NCBI GenBank assembly: GCA_017654855.1
Contig: CM030337.1
Span: forward strand, 2,046,001 to 2,110,000
DNA length: 64,000 bases
Direction of reading: 5' to 3'
Source: Podospora anserina
Lineage: Eukaryota
This document shows positions 15,460 to 61,838 of this stretch, in pieces. The first letter of the stretch is position 1. The number at the start of each line of letters is the position of its first letter. The translations under genes and the position numbers were made by a program. The notes under the pieces were generated by a model. The model was not told the origin of the DNA. It made no database searches and worked only from the letters and a program-made list of their open reading frames with translations.

Positions 15460-17226
15460 TCATTGTGTCTCCTCCATCAATCCCCTACTCAGCTTAAACT
15501 CCCCATGAACTGCCAACCCAAACGTCTGCTTCCTCGTCACGCGCTTCTGGATCGACCCCAGATTACCGCTCGCCCCCCGATTGTTCAAGTAGCTCGGCGG
15601 CTCATCCACCTGCCCCCTCTCAACCCACTGTTTGCACAGATCCGCATTGACCAAACTCATGATCTTTGTCGAGACATAAAACCTGCCAAGCACATCTCCC
15701 TCCAGCTTCGTCGTCGTCGTAAACTGCCGGTCCTCCTCTGTAGCAGCGGGCTGAAGCGTCTTCAGCGAAAGCACCACCCAGTACCACGCCATCGACTTGT
15801 TCTTCTCAAATGCGTTCCTCCCCGCAATCTCCTCAGCACACACCGGGCCCAGCGTGTCGGGCGGTGCAGCACCCGGCGGCGGGACGCCAGCCGGGGCGCG
15901 AACCGGACGGATGAGCTTTCCCTGAAATCGCAACACCGGTTTGGAGTTCTGCTGCCCCGTCGGGATGAGATACTGAATCTGCTCCACATGCATGATGCCA
16001 ACCGCCGGAACAGAAGCATCAGCTGGTTGCTGCTGGGAGCCGTCTGCCGGCAGTCCGAGCTGGACCCTGATGGGGTCGTTAACCATGATCATCTCGGCGC
16101 CAAAGTATACTCCCTGAAAACACTTCAGGCGGAAGAGATTATCGTCCGTGGGCGCGTCGTGGATCTTATTGAAGAAGGAGAAGCAGTCGTTGATGCTCCT
16201 GGCTGCGAGTTTGGACGCCTCGAGACCCACGGTTTGCAGCGCCTGTTGCTGTTGGGCAGCGTCTTTGCCGCGACGTTCGTTTTCGCTGAGGGCCAGCCAA
16301 TCGACCTCGTCGAAGGGTTTGCCTCTGAGATGGGCCGGAGAGTCTGGCACACTAAACGTGAGGAACGGGCGCATGGTCGAGGCGTCCTTGACAACGACGT
16401 CTTGCTGAAGCGTCGCGTGGCCCAGGGGCGCGATTTGAAACTCGTAGCTAGTATCTAGTGCACCAGGCTGTGCGCCTGGTCGAAGAGTGATGGCGAAAAC
16501 GATGCCTAGCCGCCAGGCGGTGAACCTGTACCAGACCATCTCCCCAACACGGAAGACATTAGAAAGCCCAGTCGTGCCCGGGGGCATTGGTATCCGTGGT
16601 GGCTGTGCTGGAACCTGTTGCGTTTGTTGCTGTTCGGGGTGGACAGATACCGCTTGTGAGCGAGGAGGTGTTGAGTTTTGCACCGCTGCCGAGCCGGTGG
16701 CAGGGTTGGCTTCCCACGCCGCGATAGCGTCTGGTCGTTTTTTCTGCTGAGCCTCGACATATCTGGCACAAAGATCGCAAGGGCACTGGCTGGGGTCTCG
16801 TGAATCGCTGGCGAGCCATAAAGCGTGACTGGCAAACTCGCCCGGGGTGCGGTAGAGGGACTTTGCACCTGCTGGGTGTCCATACAAGTAATAATCCCTG
16901 GCCCCGTCTTTTCTGATAGCTACTCGCAACTCGTACCCCTTTGGAAATGCCGAAAGTATGAATTGGCGTTCTGTGTAAGGTAGGCATCAGCATCTCCTGC
17001 TCCCACCAACACGCAAAGGGAGCTTACTGTCATCTTTCGGCGCAAGCTGCATCCCAAGATGTCCTCCAATGATCACTTGCCATCGTTCAAGTTGTGTTAC
17101 GTCCTGGTCTTCGCCCATATCAAGGGGCTTCTGGTCCAGGTCTTGGTAACTCTGACCATCACTGCGGGCAATGCTGATGGGCCAGTAGTCGGCGTTCGTA
17201 TCGTCCTTAGCCGCCGAACTCGCCAT
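15460..17226 (-). CDS. clr2: Cryptic loci regulator 2 (Clr2)-family transcription-silencing protein
   Basis: ATG 17226; intron 16971-17027 (GTAAGC..GCTGAT..CAG). N-terminal motif FPKGYEL..DYYLYGHP..YRTPGEFASHALWL..CPCDLC, then FRVGEMVW and GVYFGAEMIMVNDPIRV, typical of fungal Clr2 proteins. Confidence 0.85.
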
Positions 17227-36898: not shown

Positions 36899-37629
36899 TT
36901 TGGTATCTGGACTGGCTCAGTGTCCACGGGAAGGGTAGGAAACAGGAGATCTTGGAGTAGGCGAGGACTGGGTGATGTCTAATCAATGAACAAAGCTCCA
37001 GGCTCCAGTATTCTGAATAGGGAGAGGTTGCGAATGCGCAAGGCGGGATGCGGCTGAGAGCTTGGTGGCTGATGGTGGGGTTGGAAGTGCGTTGCATGCG
37101 GGGTAGCACGCTAATCAGCCTTTAACAGTTTGCGACAGGGTCTTGGCTGTCGTCGTTGTGGAGTCGATCTCCATACATGTCCATCTTGACAGCAGTTGGC
37201 TCGTGCGTTCTTCAACCTCATGTCTTGAGACGTAGGTAGAGAGCAGCTTGACCAGTGCCTCATGGGATGTGAGAGGAATCAAGGTATGCAAAAATAAAGA
37301 CAATTTAAACAGCTTTCTTTCAATAGCAACTTTCAAGTTCAATCTAAACAGATAATTGAGCTCCTGAAACTCACAGTCACGTGGGATATATGGTCCGTGC
37401 CAGATATCAACGGACTTGTTGGAGCCTCGCGCTTGGCAACTTATTCCGCCAGTCAACACCTGTCCAGCATTGACAGCAACATATCTATTTCTTGTTTAAC
37501 ATCACGGTAGACCTTCATCGCTTCCAAATTCTCTACACCATAGCCATAATTACCTCTCGTTGGAAACAGCTTTTTTGGAAGACATCAACAACCATTCAGC
37601 ACCGTTAATCCATCCTTCAAACCATCAAA

Positions 37630-40600
37630 ATGGCGGACAAAGATAAACAGTACAAGTATCGTCAAGAGATACAGCAGGTTCGTTATGACTCTCTCTTTTG
37701 TTTGCTAGGTTGTATGACAAGTTGGGAAGTGGATGGAATGGACTGGGTGGGAAATGGAATGGGTTGATGGAGAAAGGACATCATGTGGGCATTGAGCATC
37801 GATTCAGGGACAAGAGCTGGATGCAGCAAGACGGCTTGACAGAGGGGATAGCCGGGCAGGGAATGCATAAAGCCAGATGATGTGACAAGTCACATTTGAA
37901 GGAGATAAAGAGATGGTACTCTCTGTCAACAGCGCGGTGAGAAATCTATTGGGAATGGGTATCTTATGACTTGGAAGATCTCTTGACTCTGGAGGGGTCT
38001 GTGGGGGGATGTCAGGAAAACTGGTGCTGGCCCCAACAGCTTTCATGTCTCTCACAGTGAAAGTCATCATGGGGGTGAAAACAGCTATACCGGTATTGCT
38101 CCCGGGCAGCGGCGGCGACGACATTCTGGGCCATGGCAACGGCAACGGCAACACTACATAAGTTCCCCATGTTTTGTTCTACTCACAAAATGACGCTTCC
38201 CTCAACCACTTTTCGACACGAGACCCAGAAGAAAAGACATCGAGATTGTCATAATGATCAGCACTTCTCCCTCCACACAGCCTGGTAAAAAGGGGCAGTC
38301 AGGTTGCCCACCCATGACGGAGCTGCCGCTCGCTCACCCTTCTTTGCCGACGCCAGGAAACTCGCGACTACCACCCCTGAACGCTCGACCTGGATGGAGA
38401 GCATCCGCTCCTGAGCGCCCTTCTCGCCGGACAGCACCGCCTGCGAACCCAACACACGGTCCCACCGTGAGCAAGATTCTTGCTCCCTCTTGGACTAATT
38501 TACAGGCAGAGCAGCCACAGCAAGAGGTGCGGCTACAAAAGACAGAAGAGGCACTGCTGCTTGAGAAGAGAGACCAGCTTCTTTGCTGGATCGAGCAGCT
38601 TGAGATTGAGATTGAACAGTGAAAACTGCCAACCTCGCCAAAGTCAAAATCTCAAGAGTCGCAGCCACAGGCCATTTCTCAAGAGAACCCATCGGAGTTA
38701 GTGCCAGAGCTGTCTTCCTTGCAGCCAGAGTTGAGAACTCAAGAGAGATCACCTGCACCAGAGTCGCAGCCCGCAGCCATTTCTGCGACTTTTCAGGAGC
38801 AACCATCAGAGTCGAAACCTCAAGACACATCACCACACTCTGAGTTGCAGCAAACAGTCAAAGAACTCGAGATCTCGAAACAAGAATTGCCAGTCTCACA
38901 GCCGGAGTCGACACTCCAAGAAATCTTGCTGCATCCTGTGCCAGAGTCGCAGCTGTCACCACAGGCACAAGGGGCGCAGCCAGAAATCATGCCACGAAAG
39001 ATACTGCCCAAAGAAACCCCAGAGTTATATACAGCCCATCAACTTCAACCAGTGCCGCCTCGTCAAGTACCAGAGGTGCAGCCACAGCTTGAGAAGCAGC
39101 CTGAGTCTGAAAGGCAACCCGAGCCAGAGCCGCAGCAGTTGCGACCCATTCCGATGCTTCAGTCAGAGCAACCTCGTGATTTTGCCCCCCATCGAGGAAA
39201 TGAGCAGGTCCAGCAGCAGAATGATGGCCAGTCCATGAAGGGGGCGACCCCCCCGACTCGACAGCAACAGGAAGATGACACCCCCATGTACTTTCAAGCC
39301 TCCCTTCACGAGCTCTATCCCGTCAGGCTTGTCAATCCGCGGTGCGCCAAATTCAAGAAAGTGTTTCAGAGGCCACACTTCTTCACCCCGTCCCCGAGTT
39401 ATGCAATCGGATACACTCCTGTGCCGCCACCGCAGCCCGGAGCTGCTACTGGTAGTACTGCTGTCAATGACTCCGCGCCCCCTGTCATTGACGTCCCGCG
39501 CTCTGCAGTCAAAGAAGCCATTGCCAGTCGTAACGACGTCTTCAAGGGAAACCCCGCGCTGTTTGACGAGGTCATGATGAATGGCCAACCACTTGACCTT
39601 AGTGGCTACGACCTTGAGCAGAATGAGGAAGGCACTGCCAATTTGATCCCGCTTAACCTTGACCCGGCTGCGTTTATGCTCAAGGATTTCCTCACTCGGC
39701 CTGATCCGATGGAAACGGGGAAGGGGAAAGAGGGGGGGACTGGACGGGAGGGGGAGAGGGAGGAGGTTGCTTTTGAGGTTGAAATTGATCCCAGCGACTG
39801 GATTGCTGACATTGTTACCAAGATGATGTACGTCTCTGGTGAGACGGGCGAGCCATCGGCCGAGACGACGGGGATTATCGAGGATATCGTGAGGCAGCAG
39901 GTTATTGAGATTGTGAGTTTGTGTCCATTCAATGTTTCTCCCGTCCGAACTAACCACCGTCCCAGCTCCGCAACTGCACCGAACTCGCCGCCCGCCGCGG
40001 CGCCCGCGCGATCACTATTAATGACCTGATTTTCCAAATCCGTGATGACGCCCCAAAGGTTTCCCGTCTGCGGACATTCCTCTCCTGGAAAGACGTCCGC
40101 AAAAACGTCAAGGATTCCGACGACAAGGGAGGAGAGGGTGATCTTGGTGCGGGTGAAGACCCCGTCGGTGGTGTAGTTCCCGGCGGGCCAGTCGACGACA
40201 CGGCCAAAAAGAACAAGAAAGCCAAAGTCGGCCTCCCCTGGGAACCATCGTCTTATTTCGCCGTTGAAGTCCCAGAGAGAGAAGACGAAGAAGACGAGGA
40301 GGAAGAGGAAATGAACCACATCACCCTCCAGCGCCTCCGCAAGGCAGACGAGCGGACCAAGGCCATGACGCGAGAGGAATACGTCACCTGGTCTGAGTTT
40401 CGCCAAGCATCGTTTACGTACCGCAAGGGAAAGAGATTTAGGGAATGGGCGGGTTTTGGGATCGTGACGGATAGCAAGCCGAGTGATGATATTGTGGATA
40501 TCTTGGGGTTTTTGACGTTTGAGATGGTGCAGACGCTGACGGAGGAGGCGTTGAAGATCAAGGAGAATGAGGACCAGCATAGGGAGAGGACGGGAGGGGG

Positions 40601-40808
40601 GGAGCAGGCGGCGGGGAATGCGGCGAAGAAGAGGAAGATGGGGGGGTTGGGTGGGGGGTTGTTTGATCCGCCTAGTGAGGGGAGGACGCCGGTTGAGCCG
40701 AGGCATATTCAGGAGGCTTTTAGGAGGCTGCAGGGACGGAGTAAGAAGAGCAGGGCTATGTTGAACGGGACGAGGATTCAGCAGAGGACGAATCTGAGGT
40801 TGTTTTAG
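37630..40808 (+). CDS. SPT3: SAGA complex subunit Spt3 (canonical isoform)
   Basis: Exon 1 37630-37677 ([16 protein letters not shown]); intron 37678-39822 (GTTCGT..GCTGAC..AAG); exon 2 39823-39912 ([30 protein letters not shown]); intron 39913-39965; exon 3 to TAG 40808 with [63 protein letters not shown]. Confidence 0.93.
38254..39822 (+). CDS. Reading frame nested in SPT3 intron 1, in frame with exon 2 (putative alternative N-terminus); one in-frame TGA at 38620-38622
   Basis: ORFs 38254-38622 and 38701-40029 share one frame and 38623-38700 is stop-free. P/Q/E/S-rich repeats preserve the frame, which runs through ..WIADIVTK into MMYVSGE. Confidence 0.6.
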
Positions 40809-43051: not shown

Positions 43052-46000
43052 TCACCCAGCCCTCTGTTTCCCCTTCCCCCCCCTCAAAAACACCCTCCAA
43101 TCCACCTTCCCCCCCTCCTGCCACGTCCTCCCCTCAAATGCTCCCCCCAACCCACACAAATGCCTCATCGTCGGCCTCCCATGCGGACAATTCCACGGCT
43201 TCTCCATCCCCCCCATATTCCTCACCACCCTCTCCATCTGCCTCCCCGACAACGCCCTCCCAATCATGATACTACTCCTGCAAGCCCTCATGGCAAACAT
43301 CTTCCTCACCTTTGACGGTCTCGGGATCGTCGTAGCCGAACTGCTCGGGTTATCCCCCAGCAAAAAGATCAACTCCTCCAAATCCGTCAAATCAAACGTT
43401 GTCTCCCTCGACAAAGGTAGAGTGACGAGTTGACACCTCGATCCCACCGGGGAGTCCCCAGACGTGTCGACTGATACCACAAACCCGTTGCGCTCGAGAG
43501 AGACGAGGTTCTCGAGGATTATCTCCTCTTCTAGGGCGGTCAGAGTCAAGGGTTTGGGCTGGACAAGACGCTGGGATTGGACCGTGGTGGTGGATTGGAG
43601 GCGCTCAAAGTTGTATTTCTCGTCCGAGGCGTGTTGGTCGATTATGAAGAGCTCGTCGTCGTCGTCTGAGGGGGAGGAGGAACCCTCCCGGACGGCGAGG
43701 ATGAAGCCTAGGTTGAATTGGCCGATGATTTTCATTTTGGCAAAGTCAGTTTTGGTGATTTTTAGGGAGAGTTTCTCTTCGGGGTTGGCTGCGTCTAAGC
43801 CGTCGTCGTCTTGGGAGGGAGGTGGTTTGCTTTTCCGGGGTGGGAGGTGGTTTGAAAGGGAGATGATTTGCTGGCTAATCTCCATTTCGTTGGTTCTGAC
43901 CCTGTGGATGAGGTTGAGGGTCATGTCTTTCCGCTTTGGACGGCCTTTGAGGAGCATCTGGGAGCGCTTTTCGCTTTCTTCTGATGCTTCGGCAGCGGTG
44001 GCCTGGGCGGCGTCGATAAGGGCTTGTACCTTCTTTTCTTCTTGTGCCTTCTTTTCTTCCTCGTCGATGTACTCGTCGTCGGCTGAGTCATGGTCACAGC
44101 ATTCGTCTTGCTCGACAGAGGCTCTTGGGCTGTCTGCTTCTGAAGGCATCTCCTCATTCCCTTCATTGTCAGCCCGGAGGTCCTCCTCCTCCTCCTCCCC
44201 TTCTTCGTGAGAGGAACGAGGCATCTCAGGTTCTTCCATGTCCACATCATTATCCTCTCCTTGAGACACAAACAAGGACTCTTCGATGTCATCGTCCTGG
44301 CCCTCTGCCGATCCAGCGGCGTCCGAAGCTTCCTCATCCACCTCAATTTCCTCATCCTCAATGTCCACCTCTTCTGTAGTAATCTCGAGATCTTCTGTCG
44401 AGCCTCCCTTACTACTCGCCGCAGCAGAAAACATTTGAGTGAGACGTCCGCCAAAGGATGGCACAGGTGCGGTCTTCTTCCCGGCCTTAGCAGCGCCAAG
44501 CTTTTGGGAAGGCCTGGAAGGCTCCTCAATTCTTGATCGTTTCAGGGGACTCCTGATCACGCTCGTCACGGTGGAGTCGCCTATGGTGATCGTAGCCACT
44601 TCTTGAGTTGACCGTTTATACCGAGCTGGAGCGATGGGACTAGATCGTGGAGCTGCAGGTTGCGACGGTGGCGGAATCGCCGGAATTGAAGACTGTGGTG
44701 GCTCGTCTTCTGCATCTTCCATTGCGACCTCTGTCTCGTCTTTCTCTGGGTTCTCGACCATCTCAGAAGTTTCCTCTTCCTCTTCATCCTGATCATCGAC
44801 CGACGCTCGTCTCTGTGTAATCGATGAGTCTGATTCGGACGATTGATGTGACAGTGTGGCTGTCCTCCTGTTGCTTACAGAAGCAACAGAGACCGGTGTC
44901 TGTGAGCGAACAAGCGTCGGTTTCTTAAACGGCGTCTGCCTCAGCCCTCGGGCTTGGGATGTCGGAATGGTGACATCCTGCGTCTCGAAGAGTTCAATCA
45001 AGGACTCCCGCAGATTGTCAAGCATTTGACCTTGGTCGTGGAGCAAGATGGTGCGCTTGTCTGGACTGACATTGACATCGTAAAGATGAGTGTCGAGTTG
45101 AATGTCTGCAAAGATGAAAGGCAACTGTGAAGCATTGTAGGAGCGATACACCTCGTTGAAAACCTTGACAAACTGGGGTAGACCGCAAGGCCGCCCATTG
45201 ACGTAGAACATTTGACGATCTGGCGTTTGTCGGCCTTCACCAGGTGTCGGCCGGGAGACATGCCCGAGCACCCTAACCTCGGTATTGCTCCCGTCAGCTC
45301 TAGCTTTACCCTTCACGAGAGGACCGGCGGTAGGTGTGAGCTGCAGCTTGAGATCCATTGTGATCAAAGCATTCATCGTCTTGACGCCAAACACATTGAT
45401 GATATTCTCGCGTGTTGTGGGATTACCCTTGGTTGAGAACAGAACCATCCTCTTCCCTTTGGTGGGCTGCTGGGAAACGGTGAACTTGACGCCCGTTTGG
45501 ATGCAGGCATATTGGTTGAGCAGGCTGATAACCTTGCCCCATTCCCTCTTGATGTTTCTCTCCAGCTCACGACGGCGTACTGGGAGGTTGCGGAAGAGGT
45601 CCTCTACAATTACAGAAGTACCACGCTGGCCCGAAACAACGCTGGTGCTCTTAAGCTTCCCAGACATCTCGAACTCGAGCTTCGCTGCGCGAGGGACCTG
45701 CTCCTTGGTGCAAGTTATAACAGAGAATTTGGATAGTGCGCAGAGGGAGGACAATGCCTCCCCACGGAAGCCAAACGTCTGAAGTGTGGAGAGATCATCA
45801 TATGTTGAGAGCTTGGACGTGTAATGCTTTAGGGCGACTGATTGGTAGTTGTGTGGTGCAATTCCGGCTCCATTGTCTTGGACCTCGATGGAGTCAAGAC
45901 CTTGGTTTTTGAACCGTACCTCTGCAGCATGATTAGCATCCTTTACTGGAACAGGTCTGAACATATCTGAAGATATTTATTCGTACCGATGGTGGTTGCC

Positions 46001-48408: not shown

Positions 48409-51400
48409 ATGACGAGGCACTCATCAGGATCCTCCGAAGACGGTGACACTTTGCACGTCGAGGTTCCTCATGTCAGTTCGTCCAACCAATCCGCCCTGAG
48501 GCCACAGGCCGCCGCACAGCCTTCCACCTCAACTAGCCCAGACAGCACCGCCAGCCATCACCACCAACGTCGCAGCAGCGCTGACCCGCGAACCTCGTCC
48601 TCGATCAGTCGGAGGTCAACCAGCATCAATTGGAAGCCTACCGAGACCAGGAATGGCTCACTAGAGAAGCCCCCATCGCCGACGCGCCCAACAACCCCCT
48701 CTCCACTCGGCCTGATACCGACCGCGAATGGGTCACATGCAAAGAAGAGAGAGATGGAAAAGGCGCACGAGGCCATGTTTGCCGTCCGGCATCAGCGATG
48801 GCGAAGCCCGTGGGCAATTGGCCTTCTTGCGCTTGTCGCATCCATCACCGGTATCGCCTTGCTGCTGACGGTGGTTCACTCGTCGGTAACACGACAAATT
48901 GATCCAAAGGGCTGTCGAATGTCTTACTTGCGCCCGTCATACGCCAAGCTCAACGAGTTCGATACGGAACACACCCGTCTCGCAAGCAAATATTCGCTGT
49001 ACATGTATCGCGAACAGGGAATTGACCATGACACAAGGGTTCGGATCCCCCATCCTATGTCTTGGTATATGTATGCCAAGCACCTTTGCTAATCCACTGC
49101 TAACGTCAACTGCGCGCAGGTACGAGGAGTCCCCGTTCTCTTCATTCCTGGCAATGCCGGGAGCTACAAGCAAGTCCGACCCATTGCCTCTGAGGCAGCA
49201 AACTACTTCCACGATGTCCTGCAGCATGACCCCGAGACATACAACGCCGGCATCAGAAGCCTCGACTTCTTCACCGTCGATTTCAATGAAGATATCACGG
49301 CGTTCCACGGGCAGACCCTCCTCGACCAGGCCGAATACCTCAATGAGGCGATTCGCTACATCCTCTCGCTCTACCTCGATCCGCGCGTTTCCGACCGAAA
49401 CCCTGATCTTCCCGACCCGACCTCGGTGATAGTGCTGGGCCACTCTATGGGAGGAATTGTTGCGCGGACAATGCTCATCATGCCCAACTACCAAACGAAC
49501 TCGATCAACACCATCATCACCATGTCGGCGCCTCACGCCCGGCCGCCTGTGTCCTTTGACAGCCAGATCGTCAAGGCATACAAAGACATCAACGATTATT
49601 GGAGGCATGCCTACTCGCAACAGTGGGCCAACAACAACCCCCTCTGGCATGTGACGCTTGTTTCGATCGCGGGCGGAGGACTCGATACCGTGGTCCCTTC
49701 GGATTATGCGAGCGTCGAGTCGTTGGTTCCGGACACGCATGGATTCACTGTCTTCACATCGACCATTCCCACAGTATGGACGAGCATGGATCATCAGGCG
49801 ATTCTGTGGTGCGACCAGTTCCGCAAGGTGTTGGTTCGGACGCTATTTGACCTCTCCGATGTGCACAGGGCATCCCAAACGAAACCGAGGGCGGAGAGAA
49901 TGCGCGTCTTCAAAAAGCGGCTGCTTACCGGCATGGAAACTGTTGCTGAGAAGACGGCGCCTCGATCAGACCCGACGACTTTGCTTACCGTGGAGGACAA
50001 TTCTGACACCATCATTGCTCAGGGGGAGCGGTTAGTTTTGCGGCAATTGGGAACCACTGGCAGGGTTCGCGCCCACCTCATGACCATCCCACCTCCCGGG
50101 CCTCCCGAAGTCAAGCGCTTTACTTTGATGACCGATATCAAGCTCGACCAGCCTGGCGAGAACGGGAAGCTCGAAGTCATGTTTTGCAGCGTTGTCCCAT
50201 CGCAACCGGGCCAAACCGGGGCAGGATTTCCAAGCCAAATCGACCTTTCCAAGGGTACTGCAGGAACTACCCGGCTGGCTTGCCGAAGTGCTGCCCCAGA
50301 TGTCATTCCACTCCCTGGATCAAACAAGACAACCGCCTTTCCATTCTATAGGGACCTAGAGAAGCAGGTCCTGCCCTTCTACTACCTCGAGTACGACCTG
50401 GACGACATTGCTGAACAACAGTTTATTGCAGTGGTGGAGAAGGCAACGAATCCCACCCAAGGTTTCGTGATTGCCGAGTTCAGCGAGCAGTCGCAGTCAC
50501 ACCAAACGGCACAGATCGGCCTTCAACGTCTGCTCACCTCGGGCTTGAAGTTCACCATGCCTGCTGCACGACCGATGGTGACGGAAACCAAGGTGCCATC
50601 CTTGCAGTCGAGCTTGCTAGCCTACAACTTGCGCCTGAGTAGCCACTCATGTGGCAACAAAGAGGAGCTCTTCGCCCCGATGGTGAGGCAGTATCTGGTG
50701 GAGCCGTTTGAGTCGAAGTATTTTGTCAATGTACGCGATGCGCCGATCAGCCTTCACGGTGTTGCTCCCTACGTCCCTCCGCCTCTTGCCAAGAGGTCCG
50801 CCAGCGAGGATGGACTGAGCTTTCAGTTTTGGACCGATCCTACTTGCGATTCCAGCATTGAGGTTGAGCTTGAGGTGGATTTCAGTGGTAGTCTCGGCAA
50901 GCTGTATATGCGCTACCGTACCGTCTTTGCTGCGTTCCCGCTGCTCGTGGTGGCTCTCGTGTTGCGCAAACAGTTCCGCGTCTACGATACCACGGGTGTG
51001 TTCATCACCTTCACAGAAAGCTTGGATCTTTGCCTCAGGCAGTCCATTCCGTTGATGCTTGCGTCGCTCACCATGTTGACCGTGGCCACGGCCAACCCGA
51101 ACCCAGCTGGCAGCGCAAGCTTCTGGCATTGGAACAAGAGCACATCTTCGCTAGTCGATTTCCACCTTAACGACTATCTGATCGGTACTCAGGACCCGAT
51201 GTTCCTGTTCTTGATTCCCATGATTGGAATAATATGCATCGGAGTGTGCACCGTCTTCAACTACATCACACTTGCCCTCACGCACTTGTTGAGCAGCCTC
51301 TTCAACCTGTTGGCATTCCGCCCTGCGTGGGTTCGCAATGATGAACGCAAGAAACAAGGAGGCACCGGGTTTCTGCCGTCATCACCCAGGCGCAGAATGA

Positions 51401-51963
51401 TCACGACAGCCGTCTTGCTATTCCTCGTGTCTACAGCCATCCCGTACCAGTTTGCCTATCTGGTTGCCTGCCTGGTCCAACTGACAACCACAGTACGCGC
51501 GCAGCGAATCGCCCAGGAACTCCAGTCAGCAGCCAACTCGAGCTTTTACAACTACGTCCATTCGATTCTCATCCTCATGCTCTGGATCCTTCCCATCAAC
51601 CTGCCAACGCTCGTGGTCTGGATACACAACCTGGCTGTTCATTGGCTCACGCCCTTCACCTCGCACCACAATGTATTGTCCATCATGCCATTCATCGTCC
51701 TTGTGGAGACCTTGACCACGGGCAAGATGGTTCCTCCGGTCACCGGTCGGATGAAGCACCTCACGAGCATTCTGCTGTTCGGCATTGCCATCTATGCTGC
51801 CGTGTATGGAATCTCTTACGCCTACACATTACACCACCTGGTCAACCTGGTCGCGTTTTGGCTGGTCATCCTTCACTCCACCTCGGACTCTTGGCCAATA
51901 TCGGGGTTAAAACACTTGTACGAAGGAGACGCCGAGGACCGCAAGGGCGGTAAAGAGCCATGA
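48409..51963 (+). CDS. BST1: GPI inositol-deacylase (PGAP1 family)
   Basis: ATG 48409 (alternative in-frame ATG 48169); intron 49039-49119; GCRMSYLRPSY, VPVLFIPGNAGSYKQVR, lipase motif GHSMGG, DHQAILWC; multi-TM C-terminus. Confidence 0.95.
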
Positions 51964-53690: not shown

Positions 53691-55248
53691 ATGGGCGCCC
53701 TCCTCTCCCTCCCGCTGATGGCGGTTCCAAGCCTAGGCACAGTACGCGACCCCCCCCATTATCGCCCCCCCCCCCCAAGAAACATCAACAAAGTGCGATA
53801 GACTGACGATATAACCTTAGCTCCTCTCCTTCGGCGCAAGCTGCTGCGGAGCAGCAACCTGCTCAATGGTCTGCTCCGCCTGCGGAAAATGCGGCAACTC
53901 GGTCGCAACCCGCATAGCCTACGCCCTCATCCTCCTCGTCAACTCGATCCTCTCCTGGATCATGCTCACAAAGTGGGCCATCGAGAAGCTCCAGCACCTC
54001 ATGCTCGACTACGTAAAGATCAAATGCGGCGAGGGCGACTGCTACGGCTGGCTAGCCGTCCACAGAATCAACTTTGCGCTCGGCATGTTCCACCTCGTCC
54101 TTGCCGGACTGATGCTGGGGGTTCACTCCTCCAAGAACCCTCGCGCGGCGATACAAAATGGTTTCTGGGGTCCAAAGATCATTGCCTGGTTGGGGCTGAT
54201 CGTGTTGACTTTTTTCATTCCGGATACGTTTTTCCAGTTTTGGGGGAACTACGTCGCGCTGATTTGCGCGATGCTGTTTTTGATGCTGGGGTTGATTTTG
54301 CTGGTGGATTTGGCGCATAATTGGGCAGAGTACTGTCTTGGGCAGATTGAGGAGTCCGAGTCGAAGACCTGGAGGGTGGTTTTGATTGGGTCGACGTTGG
54401 GGATGTATGTGGCTAGTTTGGCCATGACGGTGGTGCAGTATGTGTTTTTTGCCGGGTCGGGGTGTTCGATGAACCAGGCGGCGATTACGATCAATTTGCT
54501 GCTCTGGCTGGTCATCTCGGTCATTTCGGTGCACCCGACTGTGCAGGAGTATAACCCCAAGGCCGGGCTGGCTCAGGCGGCCATGGTGGCGGTATACTGC
54601 ACCTATTTGACCATGTCGGCCGTGTCGATGGAGCCGGACGAGACGGAGGATAAGCACTGTAATCCGTTGATTGCGGGGCAGGGGACGAGGACTACGACTG
54701 TGGTTATTGGTGCTATTGTTACGATGTTGACGGTGGCGTATACGACCACCAGGGCGGCGACGCAGTCTCTTGGTTTGGGGGGGAAAAGTGGGGGACAGAT
54801 TCGGCTGCCGGAGGAGGACGAGGTTGATTATGAGCACAGCCTCATCACCACGCAGCCGGATAACTCGCGGCGTCAAATGCGTGCCGAGGCGCTGAGACGG
54901 GCGGTGGAGGAGGGGTCCCTTCCGGCGGATGCGCTCTTGTCGGATGATGATGATCATGTTCATGGGCACTCACCCAATGGCGGGACGATGGACGATGAAC
55001 GGACGAGCACGCAGTACAGTTATGCCATGTTTCACGTCATTTTCTTTTTGGCGACGGCGTGGGTGGCGACGTTGCTGACGAGCGATTGGGATGATGGGAA
55101 GGTGGCGGATGGGGGGGATTTTGCTACGGTGGGGAGGACGCTGTGGGCGAGCTGGGTCAAGATTGTGAGCGGGTGGGTTTGTTATGGGATGTATACTTGG
55201 ACGCTCGTGGCGCCGATTGTGCTGCCGGGGAGGTTTGAGTTTGAGTAG
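53691..55248 (+). CDS. TMS1: Serine incorporator (SERINC/Tms1) membrane protein
   Basis: ATG 53691 (MGALLSLPL); intron 53742-53820; SCCGAATCSMVCSACGKC, CYGWLAVHRINFALG, IQNGFWGPK, YTWTLVAPIVLPGRF. Confidence 0.95.
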
Positions 55249-59482: not shown

Positions 59483-60869
59483 CTAAGCTGATGGTGTCGA
59501 GCTTCCGCCGTTGGCCTCATTTGCGTGAAAGCCATCGATCGTCAGCGTCACAGCGCCGGCTTGCACAAGCTAGAGTCAAGATGTCAGACCGAGCCATGCA
59601 TCAGAAAGCGGTTTGGGAATCACAACTTACAGCACGAGTAAGATCGTCGATGAGATCGTCCACGTCCTCGATACCCACACACAAGCGAATGATGTCCTCA
59701 GGCATCTGCCTCTCCGCCCTTGTCTTTGCGTCGATGCTAGCATGGCTCATACGGCATGGCATGCTGATCAAGCTATTGACACAGCCGAAACTGACACTGA
59801 TGCCCCAGAGCCTGGCAGCTTCCACTATCCTCTCGGAAAGGGCGACATCGCCAGTCTCAAAGGAAAGCACGGCACCGGCACCACGAGCCATGGACCAGTG
59901 CAGATCGTACTGGGGATGAGACCTGAGACCTGGATAGCGAACTTTGAAGCCGTGTGACTCGAGAAACTCGGCAATTCGTTGAGCGCTGGTCTGCTGCTTC
60001 TCCATGCGGATGGCCAGTGTCTTGACACCCCTCATGAGCAAAAAGGAGTCGTTGGGGGAGAGTCCACAGCCGGTAGCATTGATAGTAAAGTACATCTTGT
60101 CTCCGATCTCTGCGTCATTGACGGCAATGACACCGGCCATGATATCGTGGTGACCGGAGAGGTACTTGGTGCCGGACTCGTAGGAAATGTCGGCGCCGAG
60201 ATCCAGAGGGTTGCAGAGCATGGGCGACAGCATGGTGTTGTCGACGACAACCAATGCCTTGCTGTTGGCCTCGTGCGATGCTCTGGCGATCGACGCGACA
60301 TCGACGATCTTGATCAGCGGGTTCGTCGGCGTCTCCAGCAGAACCATGGCCGTCTTCTCCGTAATCACCTCCTTCACGGCGTCGACGTTGGTGGTGTCGA
60401 CGTGATGCACAACAACCCCCTGGTTGTTCTTCAGATATGTCAGAAGCCGGTTCGTGCCACCATACAAATCATCGCCCGTGATAACCTCGTCACCCGGTTT
60501 CAGAAGGCGTGTAATGACATCCAATGCACCCATTCCCGAGCCGACAGCCAGGCAGCGGGTCGCATTCATGATCTTGGCCAGGTGGCGTTCAAGATGGGTC
60601 CGGGTAGGGTTTCCCGATCGAGTGTAGTCATACTCGTTGCCGCCGTTGGAAGACGTTTGCTTGAAGGTGGCCGACTGGTAGATCGGGATGCTCGAGGCAC
60701 CATACTGGTCCTTGGAGTCAGTATAGACGAGCTCGGTTGCGAGAGCATACCGGCGTGACCCAGGGTGCGGACTCGACGGGGCAGGTGATGGGGGGAGAGC
60801 ATGGCCATCGAGATCGACTCTGGAGAGGGCCTTCTTCGCGGCCTGCGCGGGCGTACTTGGGGAAGCCAT
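59483..60869 (-). CDS. STR3: Cystathionine beta-lyase (PLP-dependent transsulfuration enzyme)
   Basis: ATG 60869; PIYQSATFKQ, YDYTRSGNPTR, LETPTNP, PLP-lysine motif ESGTKYLSGHHD, SHASI, IRLCVGIED; intron 59570-59630 and a short last exon LVQAGAV..PSA-TAG (59483). Confidence 0.95.
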
Positions 60870-61838
60870 TGGGAGCGAGTTCCTGTGTGGTGGGTGACAG
60901 GCAGGTGACTCAATATCAGGTTTGTTGGAGGCGGGGTGGTTTTTGCGGGATGGAAGCCGCAAAGGTAAGGTAGGTATCGGAAACACAAGAGGAAGGAGGG
61001 CCAATGCTTTGTGTTGTAGAGTCAAAGAGTCGAGAAGAGGATATGATACGATATGATATGATATGGATTTTCCGGGGAAAACTGGATCAGCGCGGGACAG
61101 CGTTGCGTCTTTTCCCTCCAAGAGTTGTCAGTATTCGATGATATGATTCGGGGATTGGGGGTTGGCTGGTCAGTCTGTAACACACTGCCATCGCGACCGC
61201 TCTTTACTCCGGAGTCGGACAGGAGTTGTTCTGCTAGGGGGGTACTTGGGGTTCTGGTGGCAAACATGTGACAAATCAGGTAGCGCCGTAGCCAACTTAC
61301 AGCAAAAGCGCAGTGGGTCATCCAAATGACGTGCTTGCCTGCCGCGGATGAACCCGTTTTGACAGCAATGTACGAGCTCACTTACATGGTATGATGACTC
61401 TGAGCAAAGAGCGAGGGCACTGTCACGTCAGCCCGTTACCGAAATCTCTTCCTGTCTGCCCTCTCATTCCTATGGGGTAATGAGGGGAACATGGCCATCC
61501 ATCTTGATTTGCCGTGTCAGTGCCCAAGGCTCGGCTCCGGGCCGACAGCAGCCAGCACGCCGGCTAAAGGCTATGCCACGAAGTATCACTATCACCATGA
61601 GATAGAGACCTGTTTCGTGTGTCTGGTTGGTTATCTATTACTCTAAAGCAGACTTTGGAGATATTGGAGATGAAACTCGCTCCCCCCCTTGTCTGTCCAG
61701 CCGGGGAAGCATGCCGCTGTGTCAATCGCTTGTTCCGCCAACCCCCAATCTGTTCGTGATATACGAACAGACACTCTGATCTATCGCTGCTCGTTTATCT
61801 TATCAATGCCATGAACCATGAACCATACACCCATCCCT

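Follow-up and report, generated by a model that had tools for sequence, protein, structure and literature searches.

An in-frame reading frame in the long first intron of Podospora anserina SPT3 as a candidate alternative first coding exon

Spt3 (SUPT3H) is a double histone-fold subunit of the co-activator SAGA, contacts TBP and delivers it to promoters; yeast Spt3, to our knowledge, has no intron and no N-terminal extension of the kind considered here. The subject of this work is the SPT3 gene on the + strand of a 64,000-nucleotide (nt) stretch of Podospora anserina (assembly GCA_017654855.1, contig CM030337.1, positions 2,046,001 to 2,110,000), which is called the window below and in which positions are counted from its first letter. 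In comparison with Spt3/SUPT3H, exons 2 and 3 of the window gene match the family PF02269 and the spliced short form has the canonical start, whereas the locus adds an extension of 278 amino acids (aa) without any known family, which replaces the first 16 residues in the long form. The same open reading frame (ORF) and core, from the equivalent of position 38989 onwards, make up PODANS_6_1460 and the gene models of Podospora, Cercophora and Triangularia, but those models give the long form only. The locus would resemble the well-known genes whose alternative first exons or promoters give N-terminal isoforms, in that a common body can be preceded by either of two 5' coding segments, the downstream segment lying inside the intron of the upstream one and being contiguous with exon 2; what is unusual here is that the 3' splice signals of the short form are at the same time codons of the long form, and the second promoter is putative. 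Long Spt3 models are also found elsewhere in Pezizomycotina (Neurospora crassa, 696 aa; Verticillium dahliae, 452 aa; Colletotrichum, 450–568 aa; Penicillium, about 500–610 aa), and they are alike in that an ORF runs into MM[YF]VSGE, that the junction carries the branch-site codons and K/Q, and that the extension is acidic and of low complexity, whereas the Podosporaceae extension has blocks of its own and a shortened LFDEV in place of LFQxAFDE. The N-terminal TAND region of TAF1, which regulates TBP binding within TFIID, offers a functional analogy only, with no sequence relationship, since both are disordered N-terminal segments with short acidic-hydrophobic motifs on a subunit that handles TBP. 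With regard to the biology of the gene, deletion of spt3 in Sordaria (SMAC_01829) is reported to cause slower growth and an early block of fruiting-body formation (PMC7162830), a preprint gives Pa_6_1460 as up-regulated in sexual development (bioRxiv 10.1101/2024.12.09.627484), and a further article cites a 2021 spt3 study and mentions A-to-I editing in Sordaria (PMC9605262). No description of two Spt3 isoforms in fungi was found in the literature, the scope excluding Lutkenhaus et al. 2019 and 2021 (Genetics), which may give the spt3 gene structure.

We consider that SPT3 probably has two alternative first coding exons, one for the canonical Spt3 of 326 aa and the other, with its start inside the intron, for a minor form of 588 aa, and that a long isoform made from the ATG at 38989 is rather likely. 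The sequence itself is not new, as it is a deposited gene model; what seems not to have been described before is the dual-isoform reading, the spread of the arrangement over Pezizomycotina and the fact that the main product is mis-annotated.

The short form was read from RNA-like contigs. Transcriptome-sized contigs were present in 14 run sets (X1–X14), and four of these, from four studies, were aligned (X1, X2, X4 and X8); the runs are not recorded as RNA, and their RNA nature is taken from the splice joints in the four aligned runs. Moreover, contigs start at 37470–37476 in three runs while 37400–37470 is uncovered in all, and thus the material is RNA and not contaminating DNA, although contigs cannot show RNA ends and contig depth is a poor measure of abundance. 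The 5' untranslated leader of the main mRNA (37470–37629, +; contig starts at 37476 in X1, 37473 in X2, 37470 in X4 and 37571 in X8) contains no ATG on reading the sequence. It is followed by the coding part of exon 1 (37630–37677, +; 48 nt, 16 codons from the ATG at 37630, the canonical Spt3 N-terminus), which in 4/4 runs is joined to exon 2 over a GT..AG intron of 2145 nt (37678–39822, +; joint 37675>39821, 'cut +2'). That the Spt3 start is split by such an intron had been claimed in an earlier note on this DNA, and this joint is indeed the one on the deepest contigs (depths 46.9 in X1, 91.1 in X2, 86.4 in X4 and 208.1 in X8). Intron 1 closes with a branch-site consensus CTGAC (39806–39810, +), whose in-frame reading is the A-D of WIADIV, and with the acceptor AG at 39821–39822. 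Exon 2 (39823–39912, +), which opens with MMYVSGE and belongs to both forms, matches PF02269 (E 1.3e-6, 28.8 bits) and has both of its flanking joints in the RNA-like contigs. Intron 2 (39913–39965, +; 53 nt, GTGAGT..AG; joint 39912>39966 in 4/4 runs) leads to exon 3 (39966–40808, +), the remaining Spt3 core of 280 codons plus TAG, which also matches PF02269 (E 1.8e-11, 44.3 bits; the Pfam cut-off of this TFIID-18kDa family, a TAF13-like histone fold, is 27). In the C-terminal half, the TAF11-like second histone fold PF04719 reaches 14.1 bits (E 0.046), under its Pfam cut-off of 27, and the AlphaFold2 model of the 588-aa form has confident helices at 419–517. Exons 2 and 3 are 77–100% identical to proteins named Spt3 in Sordariomycetes, and the spliced product carries the conserved start K-[YF]-R-x-E-I-[QS]-Q-M-M-[YF]-V-S-G-E. 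Because the 2145-nt and 53-nt joints occur in all four runs, the former on the deepest contigs, the main mRNA encodes a canonical Spt3 of 326 aa (16 + 30 + 280 codons). The donor of intron 1, GTTCGT, has T at +3 and departs from the fungal consensus GTRNGT, and that of intron 2 is the consensus GTGAGT; a weak donor could make the splicing of the long intron slow or regulated. Only three joints are listed over the four runs, and none of them uses an alternative acceptor. A joint in X2 at 40568>40682 (113 nt, GA..GG) was rejected as an artefact of a G-rich stretch in exon 3 and does not represent splicing.

The length of intron 1 equals 3 × 715 nt, so that exon 1, the intronic frame and exon 2 are in one phase. 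In this phase the frame is open over 38194–38619, closed by a TGA at 38620–38622 and open again over 38623–40029, which gives 468 stop-free codons that take in the branch site, the acceptor and all of exon 2 and extend into intron 2. Over 38194–39822 the exon frame has one stop in 543 codons and the other two frames have 11 and 31; over 38989–39822 the counts are 0 against 4 and 23. None of 5000 mononucleotide shuffles of 38623–39822 was stop-free (mean 15.5 stops). Considering these 1, 11 and 31 stops per frame and the absence of open shuffles, the intronic ORF is not a chance feature. The earlier note had described 38194–39822 as open save for a single TGA, in the frame of exons 1 and 2, and the first ~500 nt of the intron as stop-rich, and both descriptions agree with the counts, 7 in-frame stops being present over 37678–38193 (516 nt). 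A nested independent gene within the intron was ruled out, as the ORF has no stop ahead of exon 2. A scan of 37400–40000 against Rfam returned no family, and a tandem-repeat search gave three trivial arrays only.

Codon usage was scored as log-odds per codon, trained on nine Pfam-supported exons of the same window (training range 0.165–0.342). The stop-rich 5' part of the intron (37678–38193, +), which is non-coding in the exon frame, scores -0.105 and might hold an internal promoter. The upstream open stretch with the ATG at 38254 (38194–38622, +), closed by the TGA, scores 0.094 over 38194–38619, the lowest of the four segments, and represents an upstream ORF of 122 codons or else a former coding region in decay. 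It is followed by an ATG-less open stretch rich in P, E, S and Q (38623–38988, +), which scores 0.134 and probably forms the leader of the long mRNA or is what remains of a coding region that was once longer. The candidate alternative first coding exon (38989–39822, +; 278 codons, MPRKILPKE...WIADIVTK), to which the start of the public models and codon usage point, runs on into exon 2 and scores 0.184 over 38989–39285 and 0.367 over 39286–39822. The latter value is at or above the range of the training exons, and lower scores were obtained for the remaining five frames of 39286–39822 and for non-coding DNA on its flanks.

Conservation was assessed at the protein level. As a protein query, the intronic ORF gave 4 matches among 5751 candidates, all of them Spt3 models with an extension, and the extension is 95% identical in Podospora comata (588 aa), 69% in Cercophora samala (581 aa), 54% in Triangularia setosa (561 aa) and 53% in T. 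verruculosa (515 aa). The five-sequence alignment contains two conserved blocks without gap columns. Block 1 comprises residues 99–146 (39283–39426, +), with N116 to Q127 invariant, and its identities out of 48 are 36 in C. samala, 36 in T. setosa and 33 in T. verruculosa; block 2 comprises residues 180–226 (39526–39666, +), and the corresponding identities out of 47 are 40, 39 and 35. The two blocks together are 69–85% identical, whereas the linkers are 36–67% identical and gapped. Indel runs number 6 in C. samala, 4 in T. setosa and 9 in T. verruculosa, all in frame as modelled. Because of this block conservation across genera, the in-frame indels and the exon-like codon usage, the intronic frame looks like coding sequence fused to the Spt3 core, and the extension may be under purifying selection. 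In the AlphaFold2 model the extension has short helices only (117–122, 190–198 and 268–278), and it may be read from this prediction as a mostly disordered arm with short conserved modules.

Two start codons, 38254 and 38989, had been put forward in the earlier note, together with an extension of up to ~520 aa. Both ATGs are in the exon frame, but 38254 lies upstream of the TGA and is cut off by it, and the next in-frame ATG after the TGA is 38989, so 38989 is the sole usable start and gives an extension of 278 aa. The TGA is also present in the strain of the RNA runs, all four of which agree with the window over 38194–38622. An intron bridging the TGA was considered and rejected: none of the 25 in-frame GT..AG pairs has a CTRAY branch site 8–45 nt from the acceptor, and seven of them share one consensus-like donor, GTGAGC at 38467. 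The last ATG upstream of 38989 lies at 38394, and 38395–38988 (595 nt) is free of ATG in all + frames, for which the chance is P = 0.0004 in a mononucleotide shuffle and 0.11 in a codon shuffle; given the latter value, the ATG-free stretch is largely compositional and was dropped as proof of a selected leader, a weak hint remaining. In addition, degenerate direct repeats (CCAGAGTCGCAGCC-type, coding for P-E-S-Q-P) occur over 38511–39436, all starting in one codon phase, and they extend across the TGA and the annotated start codon. To judge by their phase, all of this stretch may have evolved as coding sequence, even upstream of 38989 and of the TGA, and the repeats look like an in-frame expansion in a formerly longer coding region.

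The frame was called hidden in the earlier note, but it is already the deposited gene model in P. anserina S mat+ and its relatives. A 90% cluster of 11 members contains six named long models, one each from six Podospora species and among them PODANS_6_1460 (CAP71494.1, 588 aa) of P. anserina S mat+; the other five members are Logan-derived products of 342–346 aa, which correspond to the unspliced ORF running into intron 2. The long public models named Spt3 (Podospora, C. samala and two Triangularia) have 515–588 aa. The ATG at 38989 is the start of the public models P0009 (the S mat+ protein) and P0002–P0004, its equivalent opens the models in P. comata, C. samala and T. setosa, and exon 1 and the 2145-nt intron are absent from all long Podospora, Cercophora and Triangularia models examined. 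Public annotation thus has the long form only, whereas RNA shows the short form as the main one. At 39176 the window has G and all four RNA-like runs have A, by which a CGT codon (R) of the extension becomes CAT (H); P0009 has H as well, and this is the sole residue difference between it and the window, which therefore comes from a strain other than S mat+. In the Podospora pseudoanserina model (P0008, 573 aa), the C-terminal ~45 residues are unlike those of all other Podospora Spt3 models, as if the frame had shifted, by genuine mutation or by faulty assembly, within the G-rich part of exon 3.

With exon 3 as the query, 1205 proteins were found at E<=1e-60, of which the best 120 were listed ('near', many of them named SPT3), plus 73 'longer' ones. 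The canonical KYRQEIQQ-MMYVSGE start is present in 59 of the 120 near models listed and in 1 of the 73 longer ones, and a canonical start with an upstream fusion in 0/120 and 2/73, respectively. Models starting at MMYVSGE account for 16/120 and 1/73, fusions to the neighbouring LCM gene for 0/120 and 8/73, and partial or other models for 17/120 and 1/73. An in-frame non-canonical extension is found in 28 of the 120 near models listed (15 of them with 100 aa or more) and in 60 of the 73 longer ones (all with 100 aa or more), and extensions of at least 25 aa running straight into MM[YF]VSGE in 26/120 and 60/73. The long models include those of Neurospora crassa (696 aa), Sordaria, Trichocladium, Cercophora sp., Colletotrichum, Verticillium, Sporothrix, Penicillium and Exophiala. 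Of the tails of the extensions, 84 are distinct and have the consensus E-D-F-[KR]-x-R-[LFI]-[TA]-[ND]-x-[IVL]-x-[QK] before MM, with [TA][ND] at -6/-5 in most of them. Here [TA][ND] corresponds to the branch site CTRAC in frame and K/Q to the acceptor AG, and these positions reflect the splicing of the short form. The F at -11, the R at -8 and the hydrophobic residue at -7 lie upstream of the branch-site codons, and we know of no splicing constraint on them or on LFQxAFDE. The tail of the long form also resembles the end of exon 1, with [FY]-K-x-R-..-I-x-Q before MM. The motif LFQ[SDTA]AFD[EQDN] occurs in 31 of 105 extensions (Sordariales, Glomerellales and others), in 30 of the 31 at 62–85 residues before MMYVSGE, and in Podospora GNPALFDEV of block 2 stands 88 residues before MMYVSGE, near the LFQxAFDE site of other Sordariomycetes. 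Both kinds of model are on record for Verticillium dahliae (canonical P0091, 326 aa; long P0094, 452 aa) and for Mycothermus thermophilus (canonical P0032; extended P0022, 388 aa). P0022 has the canonical exon 1 joined to an internal point of the ORF, 69 residues before MMYVSGE; this junction would be an alternative acceptor, and the Podospora contigs have no such joint. Taken together, the models suggest that in many Pezizomycotina exon 1 is likewise followed by a long intron whose in-frame ORF directly adjoins MM[YF]VSGE.

RNA from the intron itself is also present. The intron body is covered in 4/4 runs by contigs shallower than the spliced ones (depths 19.6 in X1, 40 in X2, 10–13 in X4 and 12.5 in X8), and the X1 contig 37992–39850 passes the acceptor unspliced into exon 2, so that intron-containing RNA contiguous with exon 2 is seen in one run. 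Contigs break at G-rich purine stretches (GGGGAAGGGG-type) at 39700–39790 and 40573–40680 in several runs. The contig data fit an internal start, intron retention or both, and this ambiguity is one of several points that weigh against two first exons. The intron signal may partly or wholly be retained intron or pre-mRNA from the upstream promoter. The intron contigs of X2, X4 and X8 end at 39700–39718, short of exon 2, although these ends are probably a G-rich assembly break and not RNA 3' ends, because of the like break at 40573–40680 inside exon 3. Among members of the P. anserina species complex, differences in the extension amount to 3–5% while exon 3 is 100% identical to that of P. comata, and given the nucleotide divergence among these species such a difference could be near neutral. 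The extension has no match in Pfam and none in a PDB sequence search, all rows of its structure comparison against the Atlas have TM <= 0.30 and were rejected, and its pLDDT in the AlphaFold2 model of the 588-aa form is ~30 over residues 1–287. A search of representative sequences with the 400-aa intronic ORF gave 0 matches, and it is uninformative, as the known Podosporaceae relatives were missed too. Between the Podosporaceae and other-order extensions hhalign gave a non-significant E of 0.1 over 7 columns, on which homology of the Podosporaceae arm to the other extensions was dropped. Furthermore, the recurrence rests on gene models, in which predictors that miss a 48-nt exon would extend any open frame, and there is an ascertainment bias, since species with a closed frame give short models that are invisible to an ORF query.

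A rival reading is that of an ordinary long non-coding intron. Its ORF would then be accidental or a relic, the long public models named Spt3 would be annotation artefacts of predictors that overlooked the 48-nt exon 1 and prolonged exon 2 in the upstream direction, and the intronic RNA would come from pre-mRNA or intron retention. The contigs of the spliced form are the deepest in 4/4 runs, and unspliced contigs cross the donor in three of them (X1, X2 and X4), where the off-consensus GTTCGT could slow splicing. The extension is predicted to be disordered and lacks a family, the codon signal upstream of 39286 is weak (0.09–0.18), and with 16 of the 120 listed orthologue models starting at MMYVSGE, exon 1 is evidently often missed. 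However, a neutral intron would not be expected to keep gap-free blocks of 48 and 47 residues at 69–85% identity between variable linkers, with indels in frame, nor to have the codon usage of real exons over 39286–39822 in the exon frame only; the tail residues upstream of the branch site, kept across classes of Pezizomycotina, and LFQxAFDE at its fixed distance also speak against it. We therefore regard a non-coding intron as unlikely, though still to be reckoned with. If the long protein is accepted, it could instead be made from the upstream promoter, by export of transcripts that retain intron 1 and use of the ATG at 38989 through reinitiation or leaky scanning, the ratio of the two forms being set by regulated retention. 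The contigs of X1, X2 and X4 that pass without a break out of exon 1 and on into the intron, among them a single X2 contig (37648–39700) at depth 40 against 91 for the spliced form, and the weak donor are in line with this, as is the ratio of intron to exon contig depth, which varies from ~6% to 44% between studies, with the reserve that such depths measure abundance poorly. But initiation at 38989 on a retained-intron mRNA would be inefficient because of the exon-1 ATG and at least 20 more ATGs before 38989, including the 122-codon ORF from 38254. In addition, the intron contig of X8 begins only at 37748, past the donor, and the depth in X1 rises near 38000 from 6.1 (37648–38016) to 19.6 (37992–39850), which is a weak hint only of an internal start. 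Retention as the source of the long protein is accordingly judged improbable. Bypass of the TGA at 38620, by A-to-I editing of UGA to UGG in sexual development or by read-through, would allow the ATG at 38254 to give a protein of ~833 aa, and this we hold to be very improbable. The frame is open on either side of the single TGA, in-phase repeats stand on both sides (e.g. 38511 and 39078), extensions of 389–499 aa are present in the models of Neurospora, Trichocladium and Cercophora sp., and stop-correcting editing is established in the perithecia of Sordariomycetes. Against it, no A>G is seen at 38622 in the four runs, where contigs drop rare variants; the A to be edited is preceded by G, whereas fungal editing prefers U; 38194–38619 has the poorest codon signal; and the models of the relatives all start at the equivalent of 38989.

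With two alternative first exons as the best explanation, the course is as follows. The main mRNA starts near 37470, uses the ATG at 37630 and has exon 1 spliced over 2145 nt to exon 2. A second RNA population includes the intron body and is unspliced into exon 2 at least in part, as in the one run above. Part of this intron-containing RNA may start at an intronic promoter, most usefully downstream of the ATG at 38394, and such an internally started mRNA would be translated from 38989 into a 588-aa Spt3, of which the first 278 residues are the extension with its two conserved blocks. The end of the extension, DWIADIVTK, would then substitute for the KYRQEIQQ of exon 1 at the start of the first histone-fold helix, and the nucleotides that form the branch site and acceptor of the short form would at the same time be codons of the long one. 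The region 38194–38988 is probably decayed coding sequence that now acts as a leader. More speculatively, the extension could modulate Spt3 in SAGA, for instance its contact with TBP or its entry into the complex. Of the long isoform proposed in the earlier note, the coding-like fusion to the core thus stands, as does replacement of the start of the first histone-fold helix, the extension tail reading into MMYVSGE in place of exon 1; the start at 38254 was not upheld, the alternative acceptor has no counterpart among the joints of the four runs, and stage specificity is not supported.

As a tentative extension of this scheme, which we think doubtful, Pezizomycotina at large might make two Spt3 forms, one from an upstream exon and one from a promoter in intron 1, the latter with a new helix start and a disordered arm bearing conserved acidic-hydrophobic motifs, which could regulate TBP delivery or SAGA entry and is perhaps switched in sexual development, where Pa_6_1460 is up-regulated and Sordaria needs spt3. 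The motifs of the arm may be LFQxAFDE in Sordariomycetes, and in Podosporaceae their own block together with GNPxLFDEV. If true, a second conserved Spt3 isoform with a swapped helix and a long regulatory arm would bring a new level of regulation to SAGA in a very large fungal group, to which model species and plant pathogens belong. Moreover, with long-only models in some species and models that start at MMYVSGE among the near ones listed, databases probably mis-state the main Spt3 product of these species. The reading of a branch site and an acceptor as codons (A-D ... K) would also explain an apparent conserved 'motif' by splicing constraint.

In the neighbourhood of SPT3, an Ist1 gene (PF03398; 35918–36916, -) is the divergent upstream neighbour, and an LCM methyltransferase gene (PF04072; 26542–27747, +) lies ~10 kb upstream. 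Wrongly merged gene models in Colletotrichum, Trichoderma, Daldinia and others join Spt3 to the Ist1 and LCM families, and since the same two families recur in this way, the neighbourhood of SPT3 is conserved. The Pfam-supported exons of the window in the codon training set include a Clr2 exon (15463–16986, -), a MutL-type mismatch repair exon (43055–45976, -), an exon for a PGAP1 GPI inositol-deacylase (49093–51960, +), a Serinc exon (53821–55245, +) and an exon for a PLP enzyme of Cys/Met metabolism (59604–61127, -).

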